Shown here piece after piece: positions 2,341 to 23,129 of a stretch of 32,000 nt of DNA; position 1 is the first letter of the stretch, and every line of letters starts with the position of its first letter. Both the position numbers and the translations under genes were made by a program. A model generated the notes under the pieces. It saw only the letters and a list, made by a program, of their open reading frames with translations. It searched no databases and was not told the DNA's origin. The stretch lies in assembly GCF_000022265.1 (NCBI RefSeq), contig NC_011979.1, positions 2,130,001 through 2,162,000 of the forward strand, in the 5' to 3' direction. The stretch comes from Geotalea daltonii FRC-32 (lineage in GTDB: Bacteria > Desulfobacterota > Desulfuromonadia > Geobacterales > Geobacteraceae).

Positions 2341-2377
2341 CAGGCGGATGAACAGCTTTGCTTGAAGAAGGCTTCCC

Positions 2378-3280: not shown

Positions 3281-3538
3281 ATGTCAGAAGAATTGATCGA
3301 CCAAGTGAAACAACTGATTATAGACAGCCTCCGCATCGAGGGGATGGGGATCAGCGACATCGAGACGGACGCTCCCCTGTTTGGCGAAGGGTTGGGGCTC
3401 GACTCCATCGACGCTCTGCAACTGGTGGTAGGGATGGAAAAGGCATTCGGCGTTGTCGTCCCTGATGCAGAGACCGGCAACAAGGTTTTCCGCTCCGTCA
3501 GGACCATGGCAGAATTCATCGCGGAACACCGTAAATGA
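3281..3538 (+). CDS. Acyl carrier protein (dedicated, cluster-specific)
   Basis: 85 aa and acidic. The phosphopantetheine attachment motif is GLGLDSIDALQLV. The ATG follows the upstream stop directly. Confidence 0.9.
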   Translation: MSEELIDQVKQLIIDSLRIEGMGISDIETDAPLFGEGLGLDSIDALQLVVGMEKAFGVVVPDAETGNKVFRSVRTMAEFIAEHRK

Positions 3539-4824: not shown

Positions 4825-4828
4825 GCTG

Positions 4829-5674: not shown

Positions 5675-6101
5675 GAGTGCGGTGAATTTCCACGAGACCT
5701 TGATCAAAGTGCGCTTCAATGAGGTGGATGCTTACCGGGTTGCCTGGCATGGCCATTATGTGGCATGGATGGAAATAGGACGCAATGACCTTGCTGAACG
5801 CTTCGATGTGGGTGTGGAGCAAATCTCCGATGCAGGGTTCATGGCGCCGGTGGTGGATCTCAGCATCAAATACAAAAGACCCGCCCGCTTCGGCGAGGAG
5901 CTGCGCGTGCGCACGAGAGTGAAGCGCACCGAGACGAGCACTCTCGAATTTACCTGTGATATTGTCGGCGAAGATGGACAGCTGACCGCCTCGGGAAGGA
6001 CCGTGCACGTCCTGACTGACATGAATGGGGTCTTGCAGTATACCTTGCCGCCGGTTATTGCCGAGAGGCTTGAAAAGATGATGGCGTTTCTGGGGGTGTG
6101 A
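5655..6101 (+). CDS. 4HBT/YbgC-type hotdog thioesterase
   Basis: 148 aa. The sequence VRFNEVDAYRVAWHGHYVAWME matches the acyl-CoA thioesterase 4HBT pattern with a catalytic Asp. The start is uncertain: GTG 5655 overlaps the upstream gene by 20 bp, while GTG 5682 lies just after the upstream stop. Confidence 0.8.
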   Translation: MKLTRNESAVNFHETLIKVRFNEVDAYRVAWHGHYVAWMEIGRNDLAERFDVGVEQISDAGFMAPVVDLSIKYKRPARFGEELRVRTRVKRTETSTLEFTCDIVGEDGQLTASGRTVHVLTDMNGVLQYTLPPVIAERLEKMMAFLGV

Positions 6102-7507: not shown

Positions 7508-7518
7508 ATGGAGCTTTT

Positions 7519-8259
7519 ATGGAATTCAAAGACAATATAGTCGTCATCACCGGCGGCACCAGGGGTATCGGCAAGGCGATCTCCCTCCATTTCGCCCGGT
7601 TGGGAGCACAGGTCACGGCAGCTTACCTGACGAATGAAACAGCAGCGGCTGCCCTCAAGGAAGAGTCCGCCGGTCTTGCCGGTGCCATCACTACGGTGAA
7701 AACCGATGTTGCCACTGCCGACGGCGCCATGTCACTTGTGGAGTCAGCGGCGGCAGCCACCGGTTCCATTGATATCCTCGTCAACAACGCCGGCATCATC
7801 CGCGACTGCTATCTTCCCATGATGTCGGAAAATGACTGGGACGCCGTTGTCCGCGGCAATCTTTATCCCCTTTTCCATTGCTGCAAGTGGGGGGTGAGAA
7901 AGATGATCGCCAACCGGCGCGGCGCCATCATCAATCTTTCCTCCGTTTCCGCCTTAAGCGGCACGGCCGGTCAGACCAACTATGCGGCCAGCAAGGGAGC
8001 CGCCATAAGTTTTACCCGTTCCCTGGCCAGGGAGGTGGGGCCGATGGGCATCAGGGCCAATGTTGTGGCTCCGGGGCTGATCGAAACGGAAATGACCGCT
8101 GCCATGAAGCCCGATATGGTTGACAGAATCGTCAAGTCCTCTTCCCTCGGGCGTATCGGCAGGGCGGAAGAGGTCGCCGGGGCGGTTGCCTTTCTTGCTT
8201 CGGAACAGGCTTCCTATATAACCGGCCAGTGCCTGGTGGTGGACGGGGGAATAGTCTGA
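7519..8259 (+). CDS. fabG: 3-oxoacyl-ACP reductase (SDR, FabG-like)
   Basis: 246 aa. It has the TGGTRGIGKAI Rossmann motif, NNAGI, and the YAASKGA catalytic Y-x3-K. GGAG lies 6 nt upstream of the ATG. Confidence 0.9.
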   Translation: MEFKDNIVVITGGTRGIGKAISLHFARLGAQVTAAYLTNETAAAALKEESAGLAGAITTVKTDVATADGAMSLVESAAAATGSIDILVNNAGIIRDCYLPMMSENDWDAVVRGNLYPLFHCCKWGVRKMIANRRGAIINLSSVSALSGTAGQTNYAASKGAAISFTRSLAREVGPMGIRANVVAPGLIETEMTAAMKPDMVDRIVKSSSLGRIGRAEEVAGAVAFLASEQASYITGQCLVVDGGIV

Positions 8260-8316
8260 AAAGGGCTTTCCTGCGCCAAAGAAAAGCTTTATTTATTGTT
8301 CCTTTTCCGGTTAAAA

Positions 8317-8331
8317 TGGCATTTCATTAGC
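8317..8331 (+). promoter_or_regulatory. Candidate sigma-54 (-24/-12) promoter
   Basis: TGGCATTTCATTAGC compared with the consensus TGGCAC-N5-TTGC. The GG-N10-GC spacing is exact. It lies in the only sizeable (104 bp) intergenic gap of the forward operon, 33 bp upstream of the ketosynthase ATG. Confidence 0.3.
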
Positions 8332-8363
8332 GAACAAGTTAGCCAGATGCCACGAAGAGAACA

Positions 8364-9569
8364 ATGGAAAGAAAAAGAATAGCAATAACCGGATTGGGCG
8401 TTTTCGCTGCCGCCGGCAAAGATATAACTTCCTTCACCGATGCCCTTCTTAACGGCCGATGTGCCATGGGTCCCATCGACCTTTTCGATGTAAGCCGCTT
8501 TTCCTCAAGGATCGGTGCCCAGGTTCCAGGCTTCAATCCCCTCGACTATTTCAGCGCGCGAAATGCGGCAAAGCTTTCCCGTGCCGACCAGTTCGGCGTC
8601 ATTGCCGCCGGTGAAGCTTTGGCTGACAGCGGCGCTTTGCAACATTACTCACCATACGATGTGGGCATATCCATGGGCGCAGGCTCTGCCGGCATGCTTC
8701 ATGCCGAGCAATGGCTGAACGAGACCATCGCCGGCAGCAATCCGGACCCATCTCTTCTGCGAGGCATACTCCCCGACCGCACCTCCACGGCCATTGCCGA
8801 AACATATGGAATCGGCGGCTATCAGGGAAGCATCACCACTGCATGTTCTTCATCTGCGAACGCCATTGGCTGGGGTGCCGACCTCATCGCCTCCGGCAGA
8901 TTGAAGGCAGCCGTGTGTGGCGGTTCGGATTGTCTCTGCATATTGACCTTTGCCGGCTTCAATTCCTTGAGAGTTATCGATCCGGAACCCTGCGCCCCTT
9001 TCAGCCTGGGGCGGCGCGGCATATCCCTGGGAGAGGGGGCTGCTTTCCTTGTTTTAGAAGAGGAAAACGCTGCAAAAGAGCGCGGCGCAAAGATCCATGG
9101 TTATGTGCTTGGTTATGCAGTGGCGGGAGAGGCCCATCACATGACCGCTCCCGCACCGGACGGTGTCGATGCCTCCGAACTCATGGCTGCCGCTTTGAAA
9201 CAAGCCGGTGTTTCAACCGCGGATATCGGCTGGGTAAATGCCCATGGCACCGCTACGCCTCTCAATGACGTGGTGGAGACCAAGGCCATGAAACTGGTAT
9301 TCGGCGAGCGGGCCAAGGATGTGCCGCTGGTTTCCACCAAGGCCCTCACCGGCCACTGTCTCGGCGCTGCCGGGGCCATTGAAGCTCTGGCCACCGTGAT
9401 CGGCCTGAGAGACGGCTTTATCCCCCAGACGCTCAATTTCAGGGGGGCAGACCCTGAGTGTGACCTTGACTATTGCCACCAGGGGTTAAAGGCGAGCAAT
9501 GCCACGCTGGCGCTCTCCAACTCCTTTGCCTTCGGTGGAAACATAACAAGTCTGGTGCTCGGTAAATGA
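8364..9569 (+). CDS. Beta-ketoacyl-ACP synthase (KAS I/II-like, catalytically complete)
   Basis: 401 aa. The active-site Cys is in TTACSSSANAIG, and the two His are in EAHHMTAP and NAHGTATPLND. Confidence 0.9.
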   Translation: MERKRIAITGLGVFAAAGKDITSFTDALLNGRCAMGPIDLFDVSRFSSRIGAQVPGFNPLDYFSARNAAKLSRADQFGVIAAGEALADSGALQHYSPYDVGISMGAGSAGMLHAEQWLNETIAGSNPDPSLLRGILPDRTSTAIAETYGIGGYQGSITTACSSSANAIGWGADLIASGRLKAAVCGGSDCLCILTFAGFNSLRVIDPEPCAPFSLGRRGISLGEGAAFLVLEEENAAKERGAKIHGYVLGYAVAGEAHHMTAPAPDGVDASELMAAALKQAGVSTADIGWVNAHGTATPLNDVVETKAMKLVFGERAKDVPLVSTKALTGHCLGAAGAIEALATVIGLRDGFIPQTLNFRGADPECDLDYCHQGLKASNATLALSNSFAFGGNITSLVLGK

Positions 9570-10609
9570 AGAATATTGCCAAAGACATAGTAATTACCGG
9601 CATGGCGGCCATTTCTGCCGCTGGTGTCGGACTTGATCCCCTGGTTACTGCATTGGGAGAAGGCAAAAGTCTGCTCAAGCCGATCCCGGCAGATATCGCC
9701 GGTTCGGAGGGCTACCTGTGGGGTAAAGCTGACGCCTTCAAGGGGGGCGATTTCATGCCGCCCCTCAAGGCGCGGAAATTTGACCGTTGCAGTCTTTTTG
9801 CCGTTGTTGGCGCCGGAATGGCGCTCAAGGATGCCGGCATCGACCGTGGCACCATAGATGCCGGCAGAATAGGCATTGTCCTCGGCTGCGGATTCGGCGG
9901 CATTGCCAATTCGGAGGAATTCCTGCGCGGCTACTTCTGCTCCGGTGCAGAAGGTCTTTCACCGATGCTTTTTCCCAACACCGTTCCCAATGCCCCGGCC
10001 AGCAATGCCTCCATCGAAAACGGCCTCAAAGGCCCCAATGTAACCTTCGTTCAGCGTTTCTGCTCGGCCGAATCGGCTTTCATGATGGCCTGCCGCTTTT
10101 TGCAGGAAGGGCGTGCCGAGATCATTCTCACCGGCGGCGTCGATGAGCTGACCACTGCCATGGTCAGGGGATTCAAGGCAGCTGGACAGTTGAGACGCCA
10201 TGGGGCCGGTTTCGGCGAAGGGGCCGGTATTCTGGTGCTGGAAAGGGGCGACCACGCCCGGGGGCGTAATGCCGTGATCAAGGGGCATGTGGGAGAAGTG
10301 CGGACCATTGGCCGTTTGATCCCGGGCCTTGAGGCCGAAGGGGCGGACCGGCTGCTTTCCGGAGTAAAAGATATCAAGCTGGCAGGGCTTTCCGGAACAG
10401 CAGTTGCCGAGAAGACTCTGATGGAGCGGTTGCCCGCTGTGGAACGCCTTGAAACCGGTAACATCATCGGGCGGGCACTTGGTATGGGGGGGCTTGCCAT
10501 GGCCGCCCTTGTCCTCTCCCTTCCACAGGAGGCTGCCGGCCTGCATGTGGCGGCCTCGCCGGAAGGACCTTACTACGCCATTGAATTAAGTGGAGGATCG
10601 CCTGTTTAA
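9566..10609 (+). CDS. Ketosynthase-like partner subunit (chain-length-factor-like, lacks the His-His motifs)
   Basis: 347 aa with a thiolase-fold N-half (ITGMAAISAAG, GCGFGG). It retains a Cys in RFCSAESA, but no HxxxP or xHGTG motifs are recognisable. There is a 4-bp ATGA overlap with the ketosynthase. Confidence 0.8.
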   Translation: MKNIAKDIVITGMAAISAAGVGLDPLVTALGEGKSLLKPIPADIAGSEGYLWGKADAFKGGDFMPPLKARKFDRCSLFAVVGAGMALKDAGIDRGTIDAGRIGIVLGCGFGGIANSEEFLRGYFCSGAEGLSPMLFPNTVPNAPASNASIENGLKGPNVTFVQRFCSAESAFMMACRFLQEGRAEIILTGGVDELTTAMVRGFKAAGQLRRHGAGFGEGAGILVLERGDHARGRNAVIKGHVGEVRTIGRLIPGLEAEGADRLLSGVKDIKLAGLSGTAVAEKTLMERLPAVERLETGNIIGRALGMGGLAMAALVLSLPQEAAGLHVAASPEGPYYAIELSGGSPV

Positions 10610-10988
10610 TTCAGACCCCTCCCAGTATCTTCCCCACTGCCCCCCGTTTCTCTTCGTGGATAAAGTTATCAGCCGTGAGCCCGGTGTCAGTGCAACCGCA
10701 GAGATTGTCGTTACAGCTGGCAGTGGTCCTTTCCCTCCGATTCTGCTGATCGAGTCCATGGCTCAGGTGGGTGGTATTGCCGCCGGGCAGGTGGCCGGAG
10801 CCGGGGGAGTCCTTGCCGCCGTCAGCCAAGGGCTAATCCCTGCCGCAGTGGGCCCAGGGAAATATCTGGTTTCTGCGCGTATCGTCAAATCTTTTGGCAC
10901 ACTGCACATGGTGGAAGGGGAAGTGCTGGGGGAGGGAATATCCATTGCCAGCGCAATCCTGACCCTTGCAGTGGGCAGTCCGGGATGA
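10590..10988 (+). CDS. FabZ/FabA-like hotdog beta-hydroxyacyl-ACP dehydratase
   Basis: 132 aa. LPHCPPFLFVDKV resembles FabZ LPHRYPFLLVD (catalytic His), and LIESMAQVGG resembles FabZ IEAMAQ (catalytic Glu). The GTG start overlaps the upstream gene by 20 bp. Confidence 0.8.
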   Translation: MEDRLFNSDPSQYLPHCPPFLFVDKVISREPGVSATAEIVVTAGSGPFPPILLIESMAQVGGIAAGQVAGAGGVLAAVSQGLIPAAVGPGKYLVSARIVKSFGTLHMVEGEVLGEGISIASAILTLAVGSPG

Positions 10989-11022
10989 CACCATTCTCCA
11001 TAACCTGTTCCGAGAGAAAACA

Positions 11023-11631
11023 ATGAAAAAGATCCTGCTTGTATTGCTGTTTATTTCTTTCTGTCTGGGGCAATCTGCCCATGCTGCCCCCAATAAGGCC
11101 TTGGAAGCACTGGAGACGCTGCGGCGTGGTTTTTCCGGCATGAACGATTTTACTGCCGATATTGTCCAGGAAAAGCAGATGGCCATGATGAAGCGGAAGA
11201 TGGTCTCAAAAGGGATTGTTCGCTTCAGGAAGCCGGGCACCTTCTTCATGGAGCTTTTGCCTCCCTATGCCAGCCGCCTTCTCCTGCGGGACAATGTTTT
11301 GACCATGCGCCTGCCCGAGCAGGGGGTAACCGACCGGATCGTGCTGCCGCCGGATGAGAGCCTTGATAAATGGTTCGCCTACCTGGCAAAACCTATGACC
11401 AAGCTTCCGGAAGGGATGGAGGTGCGGGCCGACCGCCAAGGGAGCACCTGGAATGTCCAGTTGTCTCCCAAGGGCAAGGGTGGAGTCAAGGACCTGGCCA
11501 TCAGCTTCGATGCCGACGGCAAGATCAAGCGCCTGGCAATCGATGAGCGAAACGGAGACCGAACAGTCATCAAGTTTGCCAACATGCGGCGCAATGCCGG
11601 CCTGACAGAAAAGGACTTTCTCCTGGATTAG
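11023..11631 (+). CDS. LolA-like outer-membrane lipoprotein/lipid carrier, secreted
   Basis: I place the start at ATG 11023 (MKKILLVLLFISFCLGQSAHA signal peptide) rather than at the longest-ORF start 10966. The length, the DFTADIVQEK... pattern and the position next to an MMPL exporter are typical of LolA-domain proteins in pigment/lipid clusters. Confidence 0.75.
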   Translation: MKKILLVLLFISFCLGQSAHAAPNKALEALETLRRGFSGMNDFTADIVQEKQMAMMKRKMVSKGIVRFRKPGTFFMELLPPYASRLLLRDNVLTMRLPEQGVTDRIVLPPDESLDKWFAYLAKPMTKLPEGMEVRADRQGSTWNVQLSPKGKGGVKDLAISFDADGKIKRLAIDERNGDRTVIKFANMRRNAGLTEKDFLLD

Positions 11632-11648: not shown

Positions 11649-14177
11649 ATGCCCAATGCCATCCGCACCATAACCCGTTCGTTTCAGCAGCTCGTCCATC
11701 GTCATCTTGCATGGATCCATCGCATGACCACCACCTATCCGCGGCGAGTGGTGATCATGGCTTTACTGCTCCTGCTATCCTCCATTGCTTCCATTGCCAC
11801 CACCAGATTTGAAGCCGATATCTTCAAGCTCTTCCCGTCCCAGGCAGGTCCGCTCAAGCTGTTCCTCGATTCACTGGAGTGGACCGGCGGCGCCAAGGAT
11901 GTCTATTTTCTGTTGGAGGGGGAACCATCCCTTCTGCCGGTCGAAGCTGAGAGACTGGCGGCCAGGCTGAAGACGCTGCAGGTGGATGGGACAACTGCCT
12001 TTCGCAATGTCAAATATCGTGTCTACGATACCTCCGAGGCAGCATCCTTCGCCCGGTTCATCGCCTATGCCGTAACCCATCCCCAACTGTATCTGGATCC
12101 TGCCGAAGCAGGCAATTATGGGGTGAAATTTGACCAGCCCGCAATAAACAAGGCTCTGGACAGGGCCGGAACAGAGCTTGCCAGCCAGGTGGGGATGGGA
12201 ATGCGGGACATAATTGCCGCAGATCCGCTCTACCTGCGCGAGTTGATTCTGCCGCGCCTGAAAAAGGCCAGCCAGGCCTTGGCCCTTGATACCACTTCGC
12301 CGTATTTTCTTTCCCGCGACGGGCAGGTGCTGATCATGATCGCCGAGCCGGCCCAGCCGGTGCAGAATATCGCCTTTGCCAGAAAACTGGTGGCAGGCAT
12401 TGAAGAGGTCCGCAGCGGTATGAAGGTGAATGTTTCCTGTGCCGGTGCCCACCTCTCAGCGGTAATGGACGAGCGGGTAATGAAAGAAAATATCATCGCC
12501 TGCATTGTTTCGTCCCTGATTGTGGTGCTGGGGCTGTTCTACCTGACCTACCGCCGGGTGCTTCCCACTCTGCTCATTCCGCTGATTCTTTTTTACGGCG
12601 TCGCCCTTGCCCTGGGGACTGCCGGCCTTTTTCTCTCCTCCATCAGCATCATCTCCTTTGCCTTTACCGCCTTGATCATCGGCCTCGGTACCGATTACTC
12701 AATCCACCTTTATGACCGCTATTACAGCGAGCGGAGCCTTGGCCGCGATACCGGTGAAGCAATGGGACTTGCCATCGTCGAAACCGGCCATGGCATATTC
12801 ACCGCTGCTGCTACCACCGCGCTGCCTTTTCTGGCGCTCACCATTTCCGATGTGCGCGCCCTTTCCGAGCTTGGCCTGCTTGTGGGCCTGGGAGTGATCT
12901 TCTCTCTCTATGCGACCTTTTTCTTTCTGCCGCCGTTTATCATTGCTGCTGAACGGCGCTTTCCTGCCGTGTCATACCGTCCGCTGCCCAGATTTGGGCT
13001 GGGGTGGATCTGGAAAAAGTGCCTGACCCGTTCCGGTTGGATTGTCGGCCTCTCTGCCCTGTTTTTTTGCGTTCTTCTGGTTGCTGCATGTTTCATCAGC
13101 TTTGAAGGTGATTTGAAAAATCTCCAGCCACGCCATTCGGAGGCCTTCCTTGCCCAGGAAAAAATGGAAAAACATCTGAGCTTGAGCCCCAAGCAGATGC
13201 TGGTGGCGCTGGACGGGCATCTGCCGGCGGAATTGATGGAGCGGGGGGGACGGGTTGAGACGCTGTTGTCAGAGTATCAGCGGCGCGGCAATATTGTTTC
13301 CTGGTCTTCCCTCGGGCAGGTATTGAATAATCGGGGGGTACAGGCTGAGGTGCTGAATTCCCTGCAACAATCTTTAGCAGGCAAGCGGCCTTCAGAGGCG
13401 GTACGGGGGGCATTGCAGGAAAAGGGCTTTGCTCCTGAGGCATTCGGGCCGTTTCTGGACAGTCTTGCCGGTCTCGGCCACGCAGCGCCTGTGGATGAGA
13501 GTGAAGCCCTCGACCATCTCGGACGTTCACCCCTGCGGGGTGTGGTGGAACGCCATCTGATCAAAGACAAAGGCAATTACCATCTGCTTCTCTACATTAA
13601 TTACCGGGGAGCGGAGTTCCACCAACAAACGTTCCTTAAACAGCTGGCGGCCATTGACCCCTCTGCCCGCGCTACCAGCGTCGATCTGGTCAGCGAGCAG
13701 CTTGGCGGCGCCGTGAAGAAGAGCTTTTTCTGGGGATTCCTGCTGGGTGGCGCGCTGGTGTTGTTTCTGCTTCTATCCCATTTCTCATCACTGGGGGAGA
13801 TCTGGCACTCACTCTTTCCGGTGGTGGGAGGGGTAATAGCAATGCTGGGGCTGATGGTTCTGACCGGTATGCGCCTCAATTTCATGAACGCCATGGTCCT
13901 GGTTACCATTGTCGGTATGGGGAGCGACTATGGCATGCATGTCCTGCACCGGGTGACGGCGCTGGATATGCATGAAGCCGGCGAGCAGTTCGTCCAGTCC
14001 GGGCGAGCGGTGCTTCTGTCGGCGCTTACCACCATTGCCGGTTTCGGCTCTCTGGCCTTTACCGATTACGGGGCCATGTCCTCCATCGGCTGGGCAACCA
14101 ACTACGGCATTGCCGCCACCGCCATCTTCGCCCTGGTGACGCTGCCGGCGATGATCTGCCGCCACAGACGCTCCTGA
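11649..14177 (+). CDS. MMPL/RND-superfamily exporter
   Basis: 842 aa. It has two hydrophobic bundles, each with the MMPL-type motif (GLGTDYSIHLYDRY and GMGSDYGMHVLHRV), separated by large soluble loops. Confidence 0.85.
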   Translation: MPNAIRTITRSFQQLVHRHLAWIHRMTTTYPRRVVIMALLLLLSSIASIATTRFEADIFKLFPSQAGPLKLFLDSLEWTGGAKDVYFLLEGEPSLLPVEAERLAARLKTLQVDGTTAFRNVKYRVYDTSEAASFARFIAYAVTHPQLYLDPAEAGNYGVKFDQPAINKALDRAGTELASQVGMGMRDIIAADPLYLRELILPRLKKASQALALDTTSPYFLSRDGQVLIMIAEPAQPVQNIAFARKLVAGIEEVRSGMKVNVSCAGAHLSAVMDERVMKENIIACIVSSLIVVLGLFYLTYRRVLPTLLIPLILFYGVALALGTAGLFLSSISIISFAFTALIIGLGTDYSIHLYDRYYSERSLGRDTGEAMGLAIVETGHGIFTAAATTALPFLALTISDVRALSELGLLVGLGVIFSLYATFFFLPPFIIAAERRFPAVSYRPLPRFGLGWIWKKCLTRSGWIVGLSALFFCVLLVAACFISFEGDLKNLQPRHSEAFLAQEKMEKHLSLSPKQMLVALDGHLPAELMERGGRVETLLSEYQRRGNIVSWSSLGQVLNNRGVQAEVLNSLQQSLAGKRPSEAVRGALQEKGFAPEAFGPFLDSLAGLGHAAPVDESEALDHLGRSPLRGVVERHLIKDKGNYHLLLYINYRGAEFHQQTFLKQLAAIDPSARATSVDLVSEQLGGAVKKSFFWGFLLGGALVLFLLLSHFSSLGEIWHSLFPVVGGVIAMLGLMVLTGMRLNFMNAMVLVTIVGMGSDYGMHVLHRVTALDMHEAGEQFVQSGRAVLLSALTTIAGFGSLAFTDYGAMSSIGWATNYGIAATAIFALVTLPAMICRHRRS

Positions 14178-14187
14178 ATCAGACTGA

Positions 14188-14805
14188 TCAGCGGAATAAT
14201 GTAATCCCCAGAAGAATTTTGCTGGAATTGAGCGGCTCGTTGGGGGAGGCGGTGCCGGCATTGGAAATGTGGTGGTAGCGGTATTCCAGGCTGACCGCCT
14301 TGTCCTTGGCAATGAAGTACTGGACGCCGGTTCCCCCCTGGTAGGAGAAATCCAGGCGGCTTCCCATGGTCGGCAGTCCCAGATCCACAAAAAGCACTCC
14401 GCCACCGGCAAAGACATAGGGTGCAAAATCCTCCAGGGAAGTAAATTTCCAACTCCCCAGCAGGTAGCCGCCAGTCATGGACCGCACCCTTGGGTCCACG
14501 GTCAGGTGCAGCGGCAGTTCCATCAACAGCTCATGACGTCCCCGATACCAGCCGCGACCTGTCTCATCGGAGAGGAACCAGCCGAAACGGGCGATGGTGT
14601 CGTAGGTCTGCACCTGGGTCCTGGTGTCGCCGAAACCGCGGTGGGTGATGCCGTAGCCCGAAAGCAGCGTATATTCGCCGGTGGCATTTCTGACGGTGAC
14701 CTCTTCAGCGTAAGCAGCTGCGTTGCTGCAAAGGATTATTGTCAGGGCGACAGCTAAAATCTTCCCATAAACTGTTTCACTTCTCCCCATCTGCACCCTT
14801 ACCAT
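14188..14805 (-). CDS. PagL-like lipid A 3-O-deacylase / acyloxyacyl hydrolase family outer-membrane protein
   Basis: 205 aa with a signal peptide (KILAVALTIILCSNAAAYA) and alternating beta-strand pattern. The C-terminal motif YRYHHISNAG matches the H-x-S-N catalytic motif of PagL-type deacylases. The start is ATG 14805 or ATG 14790. Confidence 0.75.
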   Translation of the reverse strand: MVRVQMGRSETVYGKILAVALTIILCSNAAAYAEEVTVRNATGEYTLLSGYGITHRGFGDTRTQVQTYDTIARFGWFLSDETGRGWYRGRHELLMELPLHLTVDPRVRSMTGGYLLGSWKFTSLEDFAPYVFAGGGVLFVDLGLPTMGSRLDFSYQGGTGVQYFIAKDKAVSLEYRYHHISNAGTASPNEPLNSSKILLGITLFR

Positions 14806-16217
14806 TTCTGCTTCATCTCGAACCTGAGGATCTCCGGCAGATTGCGCAGGAACATCTTGATACTGTGGGGCGACTTCCAGAGCATTTTCGTGTAACCCCA
14901 GTGGATCCGGCTGCGGCGGTAAAAACGCCTGATGAATTCGTTATAGAGGTTTTCCAGCTGCTCCAGGGTCATGCCATGGGGGATGAAGACGAAGTTCATG
15001 CAGTTCATGTCCGGCCAGTCCTCCCTGAATTCCCCCTGCTGGCAGATGTTTTCGTAGATGGGAGCCCCCGGAAACGGGGTGAACTTGGTAACGTTGATTT
15101 CGTCCAATGGCAGCGTCAGGGCATAGTCGATGGTGCGCCTGATGGCGGCTTCGTCTTCCCCCGGCAGACCGACCATGAACAGCCCCTTGACCCTCATACC
15201 GCCGGTTTTCACCATCTTCAGCTTTTGATGCACGGCGTCCAGTGCCATGTATTTGCGGTGCTTCTTCAGGACCTCCGGGTCTCCGGACTCGATGCCGAAA
15301 TTTACCTGCCAGCAGCCCGATTTCTTCAACAATCCCACCAGTTCTTCATCCACATGCTCAAGACGGGCGATGCAGTTGTAGGTGACCGGTAGCCGGTTGT
15401 CCACCAGCAGGCGGCACAGTTCCTCCACCCTGCTGCGGTCGAAGGTGAAGAGATCGTCGTAAAAGAAGACGTGGCGGATGCCGAAGTCCCGGTGCAGGTA
15501 TTTCAGGTGCTCGAAGATGTAGCCGGGGGAATTGAAGCGGAAGCCCCGGCTGAAGACCGAACGGTCGCAGTAGCTGCAGTGGTAGGGGCAGCCGCGGCTG
15601 GAGATGATGCTGGTATTGGGAGCAGCAGGATAACTGAAGAGGGGCAGGTTGTATCTGCCGGGAAATTGGTCCAGCCGGTGATAAGCCGGGAAGGGGAGTG
15701 AATCCAGATCAGCGATATGCTGGCGAATGCCGCTTAAGACCCCCTTGCCGTCGCGGCGATGGCCGATGCCGGGAATATGTTCCACGCCGCTGAAGTTGGC
15801 AGCCAATAGCTCGTAAAAGGTTACCTCTCCTTCGCCGATGATCAGATAGTCGATGGCGGGGAAGGTGTCGAGTAGTGAAACGCCGACCGAGCAGGCGTGG
15901 GCACCGCCAAAAATGACCTTGATCTCCGGTGCCTGTTCCTTGATACTATGGGCTATCCCATAACCTTCGAGGAAGGATGAGGTGGTACAGGAAAAGCCGA
16001 CCACATCGGGCTTGCTGCCGATTATGTGGGCAACAAGCTCCGGCGTGGGCATGGGCCTGGCATAGCAATCCATCAGCTCCACTTCCATTCCCTTCGCCTC
16101 CAGATAGGCAGCGATGCTCATCATTCCCAAAGGGGGCATCAAGTTGAAGATGGAGCTGATATCTTTCAGATTCCCCAGCCAGTTTCTGCCGTGGGGGTGG
16201 ACAAATAGTGCTTTCAA
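14799..16217 (-). CDS. B12-binding-domain radical SAM enzyme (class B), copy 4
   Basis: 472 aa. The N-terminus ...PPLGMMSIAAYLEAKGMEVELMDC is B12-binding-type, and CxxxCxxC is in SSRGCPYHCSYC. The TTG start at 16217 is preceded by AAGGAG at a 5-nt spacing. The stop overlaps or abuts the PagL-like start. Confidence 0.9.
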   Translation of the reverse strand: MKALFVHPHGRNWLGNLKDISSIFNLMPPLGMMSIAAYLEAKGMEVELMDCYARPMPTPELVAHIIGSKPDVVGFSCTTSSFLEGYGIAHSIKEQAPEIKVIFGGAHACSVGVSLLDTFPAIDYLIIGEGEVTFYELLAANFSGVEHIPGIGHRRDGKGVLSGIRQHIADLDSLPFPAYHRLDQFPGRYNLPLFSYPAAPNTSIISSRGCPYHCSYCDRSVFSRGFRFNSPGYIFEHLKYLHRDFGIRHVFFYDDLFTFDRSRVEELCRLLVDNRLPVTYNCIARLEHVDEELVGLLKKSGCWQVNFGIESGDPEVLKKHRKYMALDAVHQKLKMVKTGGMRVKGLFMVGLPGEDEAAIRRTIDYALTLPLDEINVTKFTPFPGAPIYENICQQGEFREDWPDMNCMNFVFIPHGMTLEQLENLYNEFIRRFYRRSRIHWGYTKMLWKSPHSIKMFLRNLPEILRFEMKQKW

Positions 16218-16359
16218 CGGTGCTCCTTGTGATATTGCAGTCTGTCGAACCAGAAAGCTATGCTAAATTGTTTGCGACAATAAATCAAACTGAAACCTCA
16301 TCGCTGCTCTTGCCCATTTTGTGGCGACATTAGCTGACTTGACTCCACCCATCCGGGGT

Positions 16360-16385
16360 GATATAGCTTTAATGGTAGCTATATC
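16360..16385. repeat. Perfect 9-bp inverted repeat (GATATAGCT-N8-AGCTATATC) in the divergent promoter region
   Basis: Read directly from the sequence. It is flanked by a second inverted pair, ATCCGGG (16351-16357) and CCCGGAT (16401-16407). It lies 54 nt upstream of the small repeat-protein ATG and about 145 nt upstream of the minus-strand radical SAM start. Confidence 0.6.
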
Positions 16386-16438
16386 ATTTGACTGCGAATG
16401 CCCGGATGAGCAACCCCCCTGAATAAAAATATCTGGAG

Positions 16439-16696
16439 ATGTTTGTGATAAGAATAATAGCAATATCAGCCGCTTTAATGCTTTTGTCTGCCAATTTCGT
16501 CAACGCCGGTGAAGGTTTCAAGGAGGGTGGCAAACAGGTCGGACAAGGCTTCAAACAAATGGGGAAATCAACCGGTAAGGTTGCCAAAAAGTCGGGAAAG
16601 TCGGTTGGAAAGGCTTTCAAGGAATCGGGCAAGGCCACGGGCAAAGCTTTCAAACGTATGGGCAAGGATATAGGCAAGGCTTTCAAGGGGGAATAA
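16439..16696 (+). CDS. Small secreted Lys/Gly-rich protein made of 11-residue tandem repeats (uncharacterised)
   Basis: 85 aa. The signal peptide is MFVIRIIAISAALMLLSANFVNA. The mature part is GFKEGGKQVGQ / GFKQMGKSTGK / VAKKSGKSVGK / AFKESGKATGK / AFKRMGKDIGK / AFKGE. GGAG lies just upstream, and the start is ATG 16439 or GTG 16445. Confidence 0.6.
   Translation: MFVIRIIAISAALMLLSANFVNAGEGFKEGGKQVGQGFKQMGKSTGKVAKKSGKSVGKAFKESGKATGKAFKRMGKDIGKAFKGE
16508..16693 (+). repeat. Imperfect 33-bp tandem periodicity (coding repeat)
   Basis: The core aaggctttcaagg / aaagctttcaaac recurs at a 33-nt spacing, in frame with the 11-residue protein repeat. Confidence 0.7.
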
Positions 16697-16750
16697 TTCC
16701 CAATGCTTGTCACGTTTCCTTAACGAAATTAGACTCTGTCCGAGGTGTAA

Positions 16751-19700
16751 ATGAGCGTCAATAACAAAAACGGTGTGTATTTTCCGTTCGGTATTCAGAT
16801 ACAGAAAAAAATGTGGGAACTGCTGGACCTGGAGAAGGTTGCGGAGGAAGTCCGGTCCAGGAAGCAGCCCGATATCATATTTATCCGCCAGTTGGCGAAC
16901 CGCCTGAACAAGCAGCCAGAACGACGGGAACAGCCGGTACCTGCAGGGCTGCTTAATCTCTATGCCATGTTGGAAAAGATATATCGGTATGTGTTCGAGC
17001 TCTATGCACGGGAACAGTTTCCGGCCGTGCTTGATGAGGTGCTCCGCGATTCAGGCTATCCAGCTGATTCTCCGCAAATGCGATCAGTGCTGACCCGGTT
17101 TGCCGAGCATTTTCCCGGGGCCTCCATTTTGGAGAAAAAGGAAGATGCAGCCCGCTTTGTTGCTGCCGACGAAAATGGGGAGCGCAGGGGGCTTCTGCTG
17201 AAAGAGCTCCTGCTTTTACGACTCAGCGGCGAGAACAGGGCGCTGGACCAATTTAGTGCTTTATTTCACGCACCGGACCTGAAAGCCTCCGATGAGCATC
17301 AGGGACTGGAAACTGCTGCGGATGAAGGGCTTGCCGACGCCCCGCCCATGGAACCTTTCGGTGTTCCCTTGCCTCACCTGCTACGGGCTCCCATGCTCGC
17401 ATCCCCTTTTTCCCTTCCCGGCCAGATCGATTATATCCGCGCCAACTGGCGCTCGATCTTGCCTCCCGACCTGCTGGCCGAGCTTCTCACCGCCATGGAC
17501 ATCGTTAAGGAGGAAGAGCGGGAATTCTGGGGCGGCCCCGGCAGGCCCCAGGTGTTGGAATTCCTCAAGGGCAAACGGCTTGGCAAGGAGGGGTATGATT
17601 ATCCCGAATATGACCGGTTTTCTCCCGATGCCGAATGGATGGCCAATGTGGTCATGCTGGCGAAGATGGTCTATGTCTGGCTCGATCAGTTGTCGAAGCA
17701 GTACAAAAGACCCGTCCATCGCCTTGATCAGGTGCCGGACGAGGAGCTGGACATGCTTTCCCGGTGGGGGTTTACCGGCCTTTGGCTGATCGGTCTCTGG
17801 GAGCGCTCACCGGCTTCCCAGCGCATCAAGCAGATTTCGGGGAATCCGGATGCCTTTTCTTCGGCCTACTCACTCTACGATTATGTCATCGCCAATGATC
17901 TGGGTGGGGACGAGGCCCTGGCAAACCTGAAGGAGCGTTGCCGGCAGCGGGGCATACGCCTGGCCAGCGACATGGTGCCCAACCACACCGGCATCTATTC
18001 CCGCTGGACGGTGGAACATCCCGACTGGTTCGTCCAATTGGATTATCCGCCGTATCCTGCCTATTCCTTCAATGGCCCGGACCTCTCCTTTTCATCGGAG
18101 GTCAGTCTGAACATTGAGGACGGCTACTGGACCAAAACCGATGCAGCGGTCGTCTTCAAGCATTATGACCATCGCGATGGCAGGACCCGCTACATCTACC
18201 ATGGCAACGACGGCACCTCCACCCCCTGGAACGACACGGCCCAGCTCAATTATTTGTTGCCCCAGGTGCGCGAGGCTGTCATCCAGACCATTCTCCATGT
18301 GGCCCGCCAGTTTCCCATCATTCGCTTCGATGCGGCCATGACCCTGGCCAAAAAGCATTACCAGCGCCTCTGGTATCCCCAGCCGGGTCACGGAAGCGGT
18401 GTCCCTTCCCGTTCCGAACACGGCATGAGCCGTGAGGAATTCGATGCCGCCTTCCCCGTGGAGTTCTGGCGCGAAGTGGTGGACAGGGTGGCGGCGGAAG
18501 CTCCGGGAACGCTGCTGCTGGCCGAGGCATTCTGGCTCATGGAAGGCTATTTCGTCCGTACTCTGGGCATGCACCGGGTCTACAACAGCGCCTTCATGAA
18601 CATGCTGAAGATGGAGGAAAACGCCAAGTACCGCCAGACCATCAAGAATGTCCTCGAATACGACCACCGCATTCTGCCCCGCTTCGTCAATTTCATGAAC
18701 AACCCCGATGAAAAGACGGCGGTGGAGCAATTCGGCAAGGAAGGTAAATACTACGGCGCCTGCGTTCTCCTTGTCACCATGCCTGGTCTGCCCATGATCG
18801 GCCATGGTCAGATCGAGGGCTTTCGCGAGAAATACGGCATGGAATATCGGCACGCCCACTGGGATGAACAGGTTGACGAGCACATGGTCAGGATGCACGA
18901 GGAGAAGATTTTTCCGCTCATGGGCAAGCGCTGGCTCTTCAGCGGCTCCGAAAACTTTGTCCTCTATGACTTCTTTGCCGGCGGCCAGGTGAACGAGGAT
19001 GTTTTTGCCTACTCAAACCTCAAGGGATGCGAGCGGGGAATCATCCTCTATCATAACAAGTTTGCCGAAACCGCCGGATGGATCAGGACATCGACGGCGA
19101 TCGGCGTCAAGGGGGCCAACGGCGAGACGGTGCTCGTGCAGAAGAGTCTTGGCGATGCATTATGTTTCAATGGCGATGGCCGTTGCTATTATATCTTCAG
19201 TGATTACGCTTCGGGATTGGAATATATCCGTTCCGGGCGGGAGCTCAGCGACAGCGGGCTCTTTGTGGAACTGAAAGCCTTTGAATACCACGCTTTTCTC
19301 GATTTTCGCGAGATCTGGGATGATGAATACGGCACCTGGGGCCAGCTTTGCCATTCATTGAACGGCAGCCCGGCCCCGAGTATGGACGAGGAAGTAAAGC
19401 AGGTCCGATATAAGGGATTGAACAACCGGTTGCGCGAACTTCTTGCCTTGCAGGCCGTTGACCAGGAAGAAACAGAGAAACCAGTGGCCGAGCAATTCAG
19501 AAACCGCCTGACTGCATTTCTGGTCGCCTTGGCAGAACATACAGGTGACGTTGGTAAATGGGAACGCCTTGTTGCCGCCCTTGCCCGGCAACATGCACTT
19601 TTCAGCAGGCTGACTACCCATAAAACCGGGGATGTACCCATCGACGAGCCGCTGCTCCAATTCGGAGAGGTAATGGGAACAAGGATCGGCAGGCTTATCT

Positions 19701-20233
19701 GTTATTCCTATATCTGCCTCCATGCCGCCGGCAGACTGGTGGATGAAAAGGCATATCCCCATGCTTCCGCCGAATTTTTCTCCAGGTTTGGTCTTTACCG
19801 GCCTCTTGAAGAGTCTTTCCACGCCATTTCCGAAGAAGTATGGCAGCGTTTCCCTGGAATGGACCCTGCTACGGCTGGCAGCCTGATACGGGTCATGACC
19901 GAACATCAGCTGTTGCTTTCTACAGCAGTGGAGAAAGACCGTGAAAGAGACTTTACCGTCCTCCTGGAAGAGACGCAGGCCCGGGCGTTCCTCCTTGTCA
20001 ACCGGAGCAACGATCACGAATGGTTCAACAGGGAACGTTTCGAGATGCTGTTGACCTGGCTGGGTGTCGCTGCCCTTTTTGATACGGAAAAGGAATTTGA
20101 CGCCGACGAATTAATGGCCATGGCAAAGGCACTACAGAAGGAAATCACGGAAATAACAGGCAAAGCTCAGGAAGCAGGCTTTGAGGTAAAAGAGTTTTTA
20201 GCCCTGGTTAAACCTGCGGAAGTGGAGGAATGA
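16751..20233 (+). CDS. Large alpha-amylase-family (GH13-like) protein with long N- and C-terminal extensions
   Basis: 1160 aa. GH13 region I is DMVPNH (nt ~17951-17992), region II is IIRFDAAMT (~18314-18346), region III is LLLAEAFW (~18511-18537) and region IV is FMNNPD (~18683-18712). Confidence 0.85.
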   Translation: MSVNNKNGVYFPFGIQIQKKMWELLDLEKVAEEVRSRKQPDIIFIRQLANRLNKQPERREQPVPAGLLNLYAMLEKIYRYVFELYAREQFPAVLDEVLRDSGYPADSPQMRSVLTRFAEHFPGASILEKKEDAARFVAADENGERRGLLLKELLLLRLSGENRALDQFSALFHAPDLKASDEHQGLETAADEGLADAPPMEPFGVPLPHLLRAPMLASPFSLPGQIDYIRANWRSILPPDLLAELLTAMDIVKEEEREFWGGPGRPQVLEFLKGKRLGKEGYDYPEYDRFSPDAEWMANVVMLAKMVYVWLDQLSKQYKRPVHRLDQVPDEELDMLSRWGFTGLWLIGLWERSPASQRIKQISGNPDAFSSAYSLYDYVIANDLGGDEALANLKERCRQRGIRLASDMVPNHTGIYSRWTVEHPDWFVQLDYPPYPAYSFNGPDLSFSSEVSLNIEDGYWTKTDAAVVFKHYDHRDGRTRYIYHGNDGTSTPWNDTAQLNYLLPQVREAVIQTILHVARQFPIIRFDAAMTLAKKHYQRLWYPQPGHGSGVPSRSEHGMSREEFDAAFPVEFWREVVDRVAAEAPGTLLLAEAFWLMEGYFVRTLGMHRVYNSAFMNMLKMEENAKYRQTIKNVLEYDHRILPRFVNFMNNPDEKTAVEQFGKEGKYYGACVLLVTMPGLPMIGHGQIEGFREKYGMEYRHAHWDEQVDEHMVRMHEEKIFPLMGKRWLFSGSENFVLYDFFAGGQVNEDVFAYSNLKGCERGIILYHNKFAETAGWIRTSTAIGVKGANGETVLVQKSLGDALCFNGDGRCYYIFSDYASGLEYIRSGRELSDSGLFVELKAFEYHAFLDFREIWDDEYGTWGQLCHSLNGSPAPSMDEEVKQVRYKGLNNRLRELLALQAVDQEETEKPVAEQFRNRLTAFLVALAEHTGDVGKWERLVAALARQHALFSRLTTHKTGDVPIDEPLLQFGEVMGTRIGRLICYSYICLHAAGRLVDEKAYPHASAEFFSRFGLYRPLEESFHAISEEVWQRFPGMDPATAGSLIRVMTEHQLLLSTAVEKDRERDFTVLLEETQARAFLLVNRSNDHEWFNRERFEMLLTWLGVAALFDTEKEFDADELMAMAKALQKEITEITGKAQEAGFEVKEFLALVKPAEVEE

Positions 20234-20940
20234 CAAACTTGCAGCCAAGATTCCCAATGCTTAAGTACCTTACGATCCTGTTGATGTTGTTTTCTACGGC
20301 ATGTGCCACCATTTCCAGACCAACAGCCGTTCCGGCGCCCGGAAAAGAGATCGAAACCGTTCAATCTCCCGTCTCCGTCACCGTCAAGACCGCCCAGCGC
20401 AGTGTCGGCGGCAGGGGCTATCTGGTCTTCAGGCATCCCGACCAGTTCCATATGGCAATACTGTCTCCCTTCGGTTTTACCATCATGGAGATGTACAGTG
20501 ACGGAGAGCGGTTGACCTGCATCATACCCTCCAGGGATGTGGCATATCAGGGGCTTTTATCCGAATTGCCGGAACAGGGAGGACTAAAGAACTGGGGCCT
20601 GATCAAATGGGTGGTGGAGCGGCCGCCTGTTGCCGGGCCGTCCCTGGGAGCCACGGAAATTGTCATGGCCGATGGCCGCCGGGAGCAGATCTTTTTTGAC
20701 AGCAAGGGGCTCGTCCAGCGCAAGGTGACCGAGGATGGTGACGAAGCCGTGTATCAGAGTTACCGTGATGTGAACGGCGTCGCTTTTCCCGAATCGATAG
20801 AAATGATTAACCGGAACGGAGACCGGGTGAAAATCGCCTTCGACGATCCGGAGGTAAACGAGCCAGTTGAAGAAGCTGCATTGAAGCCGAGGCTCGAAAA
20901 CTTTACCCTCCTTCCACTGAGTGAATTCAGGGGGCTTTAG
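20230..20940 (+). CDS. Probable lipoprotein, possibly LolB/DUF4292-like (hypothetical)
   Basis: 236 aa. The N-terminus MLKYLTILLMLFSTAC is lipobox-like. The beta-rich body (GRGYLVFRHPDQFHMAILSPFGFTIMEMY) is reminiscent of LolB-fold lipoproteins. There is a 4-bp ATGA overlap with the GH13 stop, and ATG 20257 is an alternative start. Confidence 0.65.
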   Translation: MTNLQPRFPMLKYLTILLMLFSTACATISRPTAVPAPGKEIETVQSPVSVTVKTAQRSVGGRGYLVFRHPDQFHMAILSPFGFTIMEMYSDGERLTCIIPSRDVAYQGLLSELPEQGGLKNWGLIKWVVERPPVAGPSLGATEIVMADGRREQIFFDSKGLVQRKVTEDGDEAVYQSYRDVNGVAFPESIEMINRNGDRVKIAFDDPEVNEPVEEAALKPRLENFTLLPLSEFRGL

Positions 20941-22009: not shown

Positions 22010-23113
22010 ATGAGAATAGCACAGGTATCGCCTTTATACGAACGGGTGCCCCCCCTTTACTATGGTGGAACGGAGCGGATAGTCGCCTATCTTACGGATG
22101 CGCTGCTGGCTATGGGGCATGATGTTACCCTCTTTGCCAGCGGCGATTCCATCACTGCCGCCCGGCTGGTCCCCTGCTCGAAGAATTCCCTGCGCCTGGA
22201 TAAGAACTGCGTCGATCCCATTCCCCACCACCTGCTGATGCTGGAACAGGTGATGCGCCGGGCAGAGGAATTCGATATCATTCATTTCCACACCGATTAT
22301 TTCCACTTTCCCTTTTCCCGGCGCTACGGCTATCCCGGCGTGACTACGCTGCACGGGCGGCTGGACATTCCCGACCTGGTGCCTCTTTATCGCGAGTATT
22401 CGGAGATCCCGGTCGTTTCAATCTCCGACGCCCAACGTCGCCCTCTACCCTGGATAAACTGGACCGGCACCGTTCATCACGGTCTGCCACCGGATTTGCT
22501 CCCTTATACGGAACAGACGAAAAACTATCTGGCTTTCCTTGGCCGTATTTCTCCGGAAAAAGGGCTTGATGTGGCCATTGCCATTGCCGAGCAGAGCGGC
22601 ATCAAGCTCAAGGTTGCCGCCAAGGTCGACAAGGAAAATCTGGATTATTACGAAAGCGTCATCAGGCCTCTGATGAATAGCCCATGGGTGGAATACGTGG
22701 GGGAGATCGGCGAGGAGGAAAAGAAGGCCTTTCTCGGCGAAGCGCTGGCACTTGTCTTTCCCATCGACTGGGAGGAGCCGTTCGGCCTGGTGATGATAGA
22801 GTCCATGGCCTGCGGTACGCCGGTCATAGCTTTTGGCCGCGGTTCGGTTCCGGAGGTGGTGAAAGACGGTGTTTCCGGTTATGTGGTCAAGGGTATCGGG
22901 GAAGCAGTGGCGGCTGTGGCAGATATCGGCTCCATAAGCCGCCGGGGTTGCAGGAGATACTTCGAGGAGCATTTTGTTGCGAGGCGCATGGCTGCCGATT
23001 ACCTGAACATCTATGAGGATATAATTGAAGGCATAGCGGCAAGCAAGACAAAGCCGCTGAAGAATGTCGTCCTGCCACGGCATGGGATGATGGGGGTCGG
23101 TCAGAACGGCTGA
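22010..23113 (+). CDS. Family 4 glycosyltransferase (GT-B, group 1)
   Basis: 367 aa. The N-terminus is MRIAQVSPLYERVPPLYYGGTERIVAYLTDALLAMGHDVTLFASGDS, and the C-terminal EEPFGLVMIESMACGTPVIA carries the E-x7-E motif. Confidence 0.9.
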   Translation: MRIAQVSPLYERVPPLYYGGTERIVAYLTDALLAMGHDVTLFASGDSITAARLVPCSKNSLRLDKNCVDPIPHHLLMLEQVMRRAEEFDIIHFHTDYFHFPFSRRYGYPGVTTLHGRLDIPDLVPLYREYSEIPVVSISDAQRRPLPWINWTGTVHHGLPPDLLPYTEQTKNYLAFLGRISPEKGLDVAIAIAEQSGIKLKVAAKVDKENLDYYESVIRPLMNSPWVEYVGEIGEEEKKAFLGEALALVFPIDWEEPFGLVMIESMACGTPVIAFGRGSVPEVVKDGVSGYVVKGIGEAVAAVADIGSISRRGCRRYFEEHFVARRMAADYLNIYEDIIEGIAASKTKPLKNVVLPRHGMMGVGQNG

Positions 23114-23129
23114 TATCGCGGGAGGAGCC

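Follow-up and report, generated by a model that had tools for sequence, protein, structure and literature searches.

Why should a gene for a PagL-family outer membrane protein overlap the gene for a cobalamin (B12)-binding radical S-adenosylmethionine (SAM) enzyme, in the midst of a cluster for lipid biosynthesis and export? This question is raised by a 32,000-nt stretch of DNA from Geotalea daltonii FRC-32 (NC_011979.1), called the window below; all positions are those of the window. The two genes, B12rSAM4 (rSAM4) and the gene for the PagL-like barrel, very probably are functional parts of the lipid cluster. Our preferred interpretation of the sequence comparisons, to which we give a probability of about 0.5, is that they form an accessory module, acting late, of a cluster that is rich in radical SAM genes, resembles aryl-polyene clusters, and would make an acyl (glyco)lipid for the outer membrane. 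The pair is viewed as a real accessory module because its occurrence is nested within that of the cluster, because the barrel gene adjoins rSAM4, and because a paralogous cluster ends in genes for a ketosynthase (KS), a chain length factor (CLF), and a PagL-family protein.

A PagL-family barrel coupled to a B12 radical SAM gene

The barrel belongs to the PagL family. Its gene (positions 14188 to 14805, minus strand) encodes a 205-amino-acid outer membrane β-barrel of eight strands, a putative serine esterase, which matches the Pfam PagL family (PF09411) with 76.6 bits (cutoff, 23; E = 2.7e-21) over profile positions 18 to 135 of 136. Residues 1 to 33 (positions 14707 to 14805, minus strand) form a predicted signal peptide with a probable cleavage site at AYA/EE (...AAAYA/EE) and no lipobox. 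An AlphaFold2 model built on 19 homologs (pLDDT, 87.8) shows eight strands following an N-terminal signal helix at residues 8 to 31. When this model was queried with Foldseek, the best solved structure was PagL of Pseudomonas aeruginosa (2ERV; E = 5e-6; TM score normalized to target length, 0.76), and a profile of the barrel family also matched 2ERV in the PDB (E = 2.3e-7). In public annotations, the protein is named "acyloxyacyl hydrolase" or "lipid A 3-O-deacylase."

The motif YRYHHISNAG occupies residues 175 to 184 and is followed by 21 further residues. Within it, H179-I-S181-N182 (positions 14260 to 14271, minus strand) comprises the predicted catalytic His and Ser and the oxyanion Asn, which align with H126, S128, and N129 (HYSN) of 2ERV, where these roles have been assigned (Rutten 2006, as summarized in PMC4402001). 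All three residues are invariant in an alignment of 19 sequences, including the divergent form from the paralogous (type-2) cluster and a canonical PagL paralog. The acidic third triad residue of P. aeruginosa PagL, Glu140, is absent from the barrel, which has Asn193 at the aligned position (14227 to 14229, minus strand). Asn193 is itself nearly invariant among the 19 sequences, the canonical paralog being the sole departure. The type-2 forms keep H-H-[IL]-S-N, with Asn mostly at +14 and Asp once.

The spacing of His179, Ser181, and Asn193 (H, +2, +14) equals that of the His142-Ser144-Asn156 triad of the outer membrane phospholipase OMPLA (PMC5043575), and because of this identity, a His-Ser-Asn esterase is a reasonable reading of the barrel by analogy. 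In addition, forms that are just ~25 to 30% identical all share His179, Ser181, and Asn182, with Asn193 nearly as constant, which argues for catalysis and not for a scaffold alone. We consider it likely that the barrel is an active esterase. With the usual topology of an even-stranded barrel, His179 and Ser181 would end strand 7 and Asn193 would begin strand 8 on the extracellular side, so that the predicted site should face the outer leaflet; this geometry was read from the alignment and the strand order rather than from model coordinates.

The gene rSAM4 (positions 14799 to 16217, minus strand) encodes a 472-amino-acid B12-binding radical SAM protein. It is the fourth B12 radical SAM gene in the window, next to B12rSAM1 (985 to 2340), B12rSAM2 (3535 to 4824), and B12rSAM3 (6098 to 7507), all on the plus strand. 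Its TTG start codon (16217 to 16215) is the earliest start available past the preceding stop, and a Shine-Dalgarno sequence, AAGGAG (16223 to 16228, minus strand), lies 5 nt ahead of it. The protein is of class B, the cobalamin-dependent radical SAM enzymes, as it combines an N-terminal domain for B12 binding (PF02310, 81.5 bits) with a radical SAM core (PF04055, 84.4 bits) that contains the cluster motif CPYHCSYC (CxxxCxxC). When compared to the HpnJ, BchE, HpnR, PhpK/Sden_1168, and TIGR04072 equivalogs of NCBIfam, it proved a member of none, with scores far under every cutoff, the best being Sden_1168 (195 of 575 bits), followed by HpnJ (180 of 578 bits) and TIGR04072 (104 of 360 bits). The top sequence matches in the PDB are AprD4 (6FD2; E = 2e-30), followed by TokK, a similarity of only a general class B/AprD4 kind. 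AprD4 is a diol dehydratase; the chemistry of rSAM4 should not be assumed to be methylation.

The coupling of the two genes consists of a start/stop overlap, ATGGTAA (14799 to 14805, minus strand), in which the TAA of rSAM4 (14801 to 14799) overlaps the ATG of the barrel gene (14805 to 14803). The barrel start "MV..." is seen again at the same position in orthologs. To place this arrangement in a wider context, we used 80 public loci retrieved via the barrel motif, a search skewed to close relatives; nearly all of these loci are labeled Geobacterales or Desulfuromonadales, with one metagenome-assembled genome (MAG) labeled Acidobacteriota. In 62 of the 80, rSAM4 lies upstream of the barrel gene on the same strand. 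Since it is directly adjacent in 51 of the 80, with -18 to +208 nt separating the aligned portions of the genes, the pairing is not due to chance.

The original prediction for this locus had described a fourth B12 radical SAM gene with a TTG start and a strong AAGGAG, stop/start-coupled to a secreted, PagL-like β-barrel ending in YRYHHISNAG. The start codon and AAGGAG are both present in the sequence, the ATGGTAA overlap bears out the coupling, and the PF09411 score and the 2ERV fold match agree with the PagL likeness, as does the invariance of His179, Ser181, and the oxyanion Asn182 under proper alignment. The secreted barrel and the motif stand as well; the placement of the motif at the C terminus does not, given the residues that follow it.

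Occurrence of the pair with the lipid cluster

The distribution of the pair was followed in a panel of 40 genomes from the same order (Geobacterales), the relatives nearest to the host genome in the collection being G. toluenoxydans and Geotalea sp. SG265. Orthologs were accepted from 61% identity upward for B12rSAM3, 68% for rSAM4, and 60% for the barrel. The counts are descriptive; no statistical test was applied, as related genomes are not independent. B12rSAM3, used as the marker of the cluster, has an ortholog in 25 of the 40 relatives. All 23 genomes with an rSAM4 ortholog are among these 25. The barrel is present in 18 relatives, 17 of which carry both radical SAM genes while one (G008) has a divergent cluster, and it was found in none of the eight cluster-less genomes of the panel, two of which are incomplete.

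A second PagL-family gene, unlike the cluster barrel, is present in the same genome (G000:C1:3978634-3979191; L001:1339-1899). It encodes 186 amino acids, scores 98.7 bits, and carries the motif HMSNAG...GLD, with Asp at the third triad position. This paralog occurs in only 8 of the 40 relatives, including the cluster-less G001, G034, and G037, and is spread independently of the cluster.

The barrel gene also tends to be found near the cluster. Of the 18 relatives that have it, 10 carry it no more than 20 kb from cluster genes, and cluster genes occur within 10 kb of the barrel in 34 of the 80 public loci. It adjoins the gene for a LolB-like lipoprotein in G008, L119, and L138. A chance neighborhood was considered and is rejected because of the co-occurrence and the synteny.

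Many further families of the phylum have rSAM4 homologs of 44 to 52% identity. No PagL-family gene was found within 1.5 kb of these homologs; views of 20 kb show it at the far end of their clusters. The gene order of this type-2 cluster is LolA-like, MMPL, thioesterase, KS, half-KS, three B12 radical SAM genes, GT2-DUF2062, LpxL-family acyltransferase, acyl carrier protein (ACP), KS, CLF, and PagL, the third B12 radical SAM protein (rSAM4') being ~49% identical to rSAM4. Type-2 clusters, with two KS pairs, were noted at L178 (1-16900, genome G073), L186, L187, L170, L174, L180, and L181. Seven of 13 such loci have a PagL-family gene, and several of the others end at contig edges. It directly follows CLF in five of the seven; in L178, it starts 4 nt after CLF and scores 73.4 bits against PF09411. 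Two of three more distant homologs from public assemblies likewise show KS, CLF, and PagL genes beside three B12 radical SAM genes. Compared gene by gene, the type-2 and window clusters are ~25 to 50% identical, and both keep a PagL-family barrel. This retention in both cluster types is the strongest argument for a functional link and for catalysis.

These comparisons bear on two alternative explanations. In the first, there is no functional link, and two unrelated genes happen to lie beside the cluster. The pair does lie far from the cluster amid unrelated genes in many Geobacter genomes; set against this are the nested co-occurrence, in which cluster-less genomes lack the barrel; the rSAM4 adjacency in 51 of the 80 loci; and the PagL-family gene that closes the paralogous cluster of further families in the phylum. 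We regard this explanation as extremely improbable. In the second, the barrel is noncatalytic and serves as an outer membrane receptor or insertion site for cargo of the LolA-like and LolB-like proteins, or as a small channel for the product. No LolB-like gene was detected in the type-2 gene sets examined, which leaves the barrel as the sole outer membrane component seen there, and the barrel gene adjoins the LolB-like gene in the three loci listed above. Yet the invariance of His179, Ser181, and Asn182 and the near invariance of Asn193 at ~25 to 30% identity are hard to explain without catalysis, and this explanation has very little probability.

Several side observations concern these loci. 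In L178, a CE4 polysaccharide deacetylase gene lies just past PagL on the opposite strand, and the type-2 combination of GT2, deacetylase, and acyltransferase recalls the logic of NodC, NodB, and NodA. In six fetched genomes that bear rSAM4 and lack the barrel, the PagL hidden Markov model gave no match, no barrel was seen beside rSAM4, and no nonhomologous outer membrane gene was found in its place. By eye, the genes downstream of rSAM4 in L189 and L190 are of the inositol-monophosphatase type, of the PilZ type, and a relative of peptidase U32. In the Geobacter-type loci L068 and L190, rSAM4 occupies a similar chromosomal site with peptidase U32 downstream, both with and without the PagL-like gene, a pattern that would fit the barrel gene having been gained or lost there.

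The lipid cluster and the proposed role of the pair

The biosynthetic arm of the cluster (positions 2 to 10988, plus strand) comprises, in order, a SPASM-type radical SAM gene (2 to 988), B12rSAM1, an LpxL-family acyltransferase gene (2378 to 3280), ACP, B12rSAM2, a FabD-like gene, a 4HBT thioesterase gene, B12rSAM3, FabG, KS, a CLF-like half-KS, and a FabZ-like gene; no enoyl reductase gene is present in the cluster. B12rSAM3 passes the cutoff of TIGR04072, "lipid biosynthesis B12-binding/radical SAM protein" (395 bits; cutoff, 360), with type II fatty acid synthase (FASII)-like genes alongside. The acyltransferase belongs to PF03279 and carries the motif PHLGNWE (H-x4-E). It is the weakest of three PF03279 proteins in the genome (98.8 bits, versus 174.6 and 164.9 bits) and passes no LpxL/HtrB equivalog cutoff, the best lipid A acyltransferase model giving 60 of 248 bits. 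Its best model overall is PIM acyltransferase (103 of 209 bits), so that only the family-level PF03279 model is passed.

Downstream of this arm and on the same strand lie genes for a LolA-like periplasmic carrier (10966 to 11631; PF03548, 55.4 bits; top NCBIfam match, flexirubin LolA2) and for an MMPL/resistance-nodulation-division (RND)-type lipid exporter (11649 to 14177; PF03176, 100.6 bits), which is HpnN/HAE3-like by NCBIfam at scores under the cutoffs. The MMPL and PagL-like genes are convergent, their stop codons 10 bp apart. Beyond rSAM4, positions 16751 to 20940 (plus strand) encode a GH13-like protein of 1,160 amino acids (PF00128) and a LolB-like lipoprotein (PF03550). In G019, L126, L127, and L132, these two genes separate the LolA-like gene from MMPL, and the LolB-like gene adjoins MMPL in many loci. 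Because they lie among cluster genes in relatives, the cluster probably reaches to about position 20940, and the rSAM4/PagL pair, located between the MMPL and the GH13-like/LolB-like genes, is here within the cluster rather than at its edge. The presence of a glycoside-hydrolase-family protein in a lipid cluster hints at a sugar-containing product.

The composition of the cluster differs among relatives. A further B12 radical SAM gene, 41 to 46% identical to B12rSAM2 and missing from the window, is found in many of them (e.g., G019, G027, G029, G030, G035, L094, L096, and L133), either beside MMPL or between rSAM4 and the PagL-like gene, and B12rSAM1 occurs in some lineages only; the cluster therefore varies in its set of radical SAM genes. 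In G005 (L026/L027), the MMPL protein is just 57% identical, flanked by genes of 84 to 92% identity, and in G002 (L024/L025), the LolA-like protein is 59% identical, with neighbors at 92 to 100%. This mosaic suggests that export components have been swapped within the genus. G002 shows many split matches, probably draft frameshift errors. Positions 16439 to 16696 encode a small Lys/Gly-rich repeat protein, divergent from rSAM4 in orientation and without a Pfam match, which lies beside rSAM4 only within the genus (G002, G005, and G003). Beyond the cluster, positions 22010 to 25292 encode a GT4 glycosyltransferase and a 720-amino-acid glycogen-debranching-like protein (GDE_N_bis, MGH1-like). Together with the GH13-like gene, these may form an α-glucan or compatible-solute module outside the lipid pathway.

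From this gene content, and by analogy with aryl-polyene lipids, we infer the following order of steps. A private type II fatty acid or polyketide synthase (ACP, KS/CLF, FabG, and FabZ-like) would make an acyl chain, which the B12 radical SAM enzymes, including rSAM4, would tailor in the cytoplasm. The LpxL-family acyltransferase would then esterify the tailored chain to an acceptor at the inner membrane, and the MMPL, LolA-like, and LolB-like proteins would deliver the lipid to the outer membrane. As the last step, the barrel, with His179, Ser181, and Asn193, would cleave one ester-linked acyl chain off the exported lipid in the outer leaflet, as a maturation or trimming step. We tentatively predict, at slightly less than even odds, that the substrate of the barrel is this lipid of the cluster rather than lipid A.

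The original prediction had likewise tied the barrel to the radical-SAM lipid cluster, a link that the nested co-occurrence, the synteny, and the type-2 recurrence uphold. It proposed that the cluster strips a standard acyl chain from lipid A, or from a related outer membrane glycolipid, and then installs a tailored chain. LpxL-family enzymes take their acyl chains from acyl-ACP on the cytoplasmic side of the inner membrane, ahead of export, and PagL-type barrels work in the outer membrane, after export. Because of this, deacylation cannot precede LpxL-type acylation on the same molecule. In addition, lipid A travels by MsbA and Lpt, which makes the MMPL/LolA-like/LolB-like set superfluous for it, and the cluster acyltransferase, with the lowest PF03279 score of the three in the genome, reaches no LpxL cutoff. 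The remove-then-reacylate cycle on lipid A, as written, is therefore unlikely; the option of a related outer membrane glycolipid survives and is the one preferred here.

What remains workable of the lipid A idea, once the remove-then-reinstall order is dropped, is that the barrel is a lipid A 3-O-deacylase co-inherited with the cluster. The removal of the 3-O-chain would then offset a change in outer-leaflet packing caused by the product, which could be either a tailored secondary chain placed on lipid A by the LpxL-family enzyme or a co-resident lipid. PagL-family membership with conserved His, Ser, and Asn speaks for this idea, as do the public labels, the likely position of the site at the extracellular end of strands 7 and 8 in the lipopolysaccharide (LPS) leaflet, and the presence in the cluster of a gene from the lipid A acyltransferase family (PF03279) with the H-x4-E motif. 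One relative is, moreover, found in an Omp85/TamB/heptosyltransferase neighborhood. To our knowledge, the only known activity of the PagL family is on lipid A. However, occurrence of the barrel is strictly cluster-dependent, whereas the more canonical PagL paralog is spread independently; the cluster owns an MMPL/LolA-like/LolB-like route that lipid A does not need; and the cluster acyltransferase, the most divergent of the three PF03279 proteins, passes no LpxL cutoff. We consider lipid A deacylation a serious alternative, though a rather unlikely one.

The barrel could instead act as an outer membrane transacylase, in which an acyl-enzyme at Ser181 moves the tailored chain from an exported carrier lipid to lipid A or another acceptor, a PagP-like function on a PagL scaffold. 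This would make sense of a cluster that has an export route of its own together with two "lipid A" enzyme families, and the nested occurrence of cluster, rSAM4, and barrel fits it. Serine hydrolases are able to transacylate, but we know of no PagL-family member that does so, and the sequence gives no sign of an acceptor site, which makes the proposal pure inference and quite improbable. A broader possibility, improbable as well but less so, is a second pathway for a lipid-A-like outer-leaflet glycolipid with its own radical-SAM-tailored chains, Lpt-independent export, and PagL-derived finishing at the cell surface, either by trimming or by transacylation onto lipid A. The GT2-DUF2062 and LpxL-family acyltransferase genes of the type-2 clusters, and the CE4 deacetylase gene next to PagL in L178, belong to this picture. 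If true, this would be an assembly logic not described for Gram-negative envelopes.

Six points weigh against the preferred interpretation, in which the pair acts late on the lipid of the cluster. First, eight cluster-bearing relatives do not have the barrel, which makes it dispensable; it is thus an optional extra, placed downstream in a pathway of which rSAM4 is always a part. Second, the rSAM4/barrel pair stands alone amid unrelated genes in many Geobacter genomes, and no common theme was found among its neighbors in Geobacter MAGs (an FMN reductase, peptidase U32, a GGDEF regulator, and a multiheme cytochrome). Third, co-transcription of the two genes would follow from a single feature, the ATGGTAA overlap; a scan of positions 13900 to 16900 for promoters and terminators gave counts equal to those in shuffled sequence and is uninformative on this point. 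Fourth, the third triad residue is Asn and not the Glu of PagL, and activity is assumed through the analogy with OMPLA. Fifth, the predicted site would be directed to the outer leaflet, whose main lipid is LPS, and this favors a lipid A substrate. Sixth, the third of the more distant homologs, which shares ~50% identity with the type-2 form, has Omp85/TamB and an LPS-core glycosyltransferase as neighbors, a setting that a plain lipid A deacylase might show.

Comparison with known systems

Similar to PagL of P. aeruginosa (2ERV), Salmonella, and Bordetella, the barrel belongs to PF09411, has eight strands and a signal peptide, and carries H-x-S-N on the penultimate strand. It is only ~17 to 18% identical to PagL, has Asn193 in place of the Glu of the Ser-His-Glu triad, and, unlike PagL, depends on a lipid biosynthesis and export cluster and is coupled in translation to a B12 radical SAM enzyme. 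OMPLA (PldA) of Escherichia coli is likewise an outer membrane barrel serine hydrolase with the same triad spacing. It differs in being a 12-stranded, calcium-dependent dimer of another family, and no sequence homology with the barrel was detected.

At the level of the cluster, the rhizobial acpXL-fabZXL-fabF2XL-fabF1XL-lpxXL region offers one parallel. It has a private ACP, a KS pair, a dehydratase, and an LpxL-family enzyme that puts a special chain on lipid A, with LpxXL adding the very-long-chain acids borne by AcpXL. This region has no radical SAM gene, no MMPL/LolA/LolB-like export genes, and no PagL gene.

The aryl polyene (APE) and aryl polyene lipid (APEL) clusters of E. coli CFT073 and Xenorhabdus doucetiae share with the window cluster a private ACP, a KS/CLF-type pair, a ketoreductase, a dehydratase, a thioesterase, an acyltransferase, an RND exporter, and LolA-like and LolB-like proteins. 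The model proposed for aryl-polyene lipids consists of acylation at the inner membrane, export by the RND, LolA-like, and LolB-like proteins, and a possible flip to the outer leaflet (bioRxiv 10.1101/2020.12.19.423268; PMC8253772). The ApeA-R gene list contains neither a PagL-family gene nor a radical SAM gene (PMC8253772). Conversely, no ApeH-type aryl starter ligase or ApeB-type methyltransferase domain was found in the scanned open reading frames of positions 1 to 20940, and the acyltransferase of the window cluster, unlike those of APE clusters, is of the LpxL family (PF03279).

We know of no report of ladderanes from Geobacterales. The "ladderane-type" clusters of Kuenenia stuttgartiensis and Desulfotalea psychrophila resemble the window cluster in that B12rSAM3 passes TIGR04072, a model that encodes this context. 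Clusters of FASII and radical SAM genes like the proposed ladderane genes have been noted in Geobacter and Pelobacter (Rattray 2009, PMC2649909), in a paper from which the term "outer membrane" is absent. A 2026 review lists only ladderanes and the Jaw5 product as proposed radical-SAM-modified acyl lipids (PMC13459092). In our literature searches, we found no account of a PagL-family protein belonging to such clusters or of its gene being coupled to one for a B12 radical SAM enzyme, and nothing relevant on Geobacter lipid A or on a link between PagL and aryl polyenes.

Radical-SAM-rich, "ladderane-type" lipid clusters have been cataloged since 2009. A conserved PagL-family esterase in such clusters would provide a handle on them: a single deletion should pile up a precursor that is one acyl chain heavier, aiding identification of the lipid. 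It would also widen the PagL family from host-adaptive remodeling of lipid A to specialized lipid biosynthesis in environmental anaerobes. Whereas the clusters (since 2009) and the annotation names of the barrel were known already, what appears to be new here is the recruitment of a predicted PagL-family esterase to a specialized lipid pathway.

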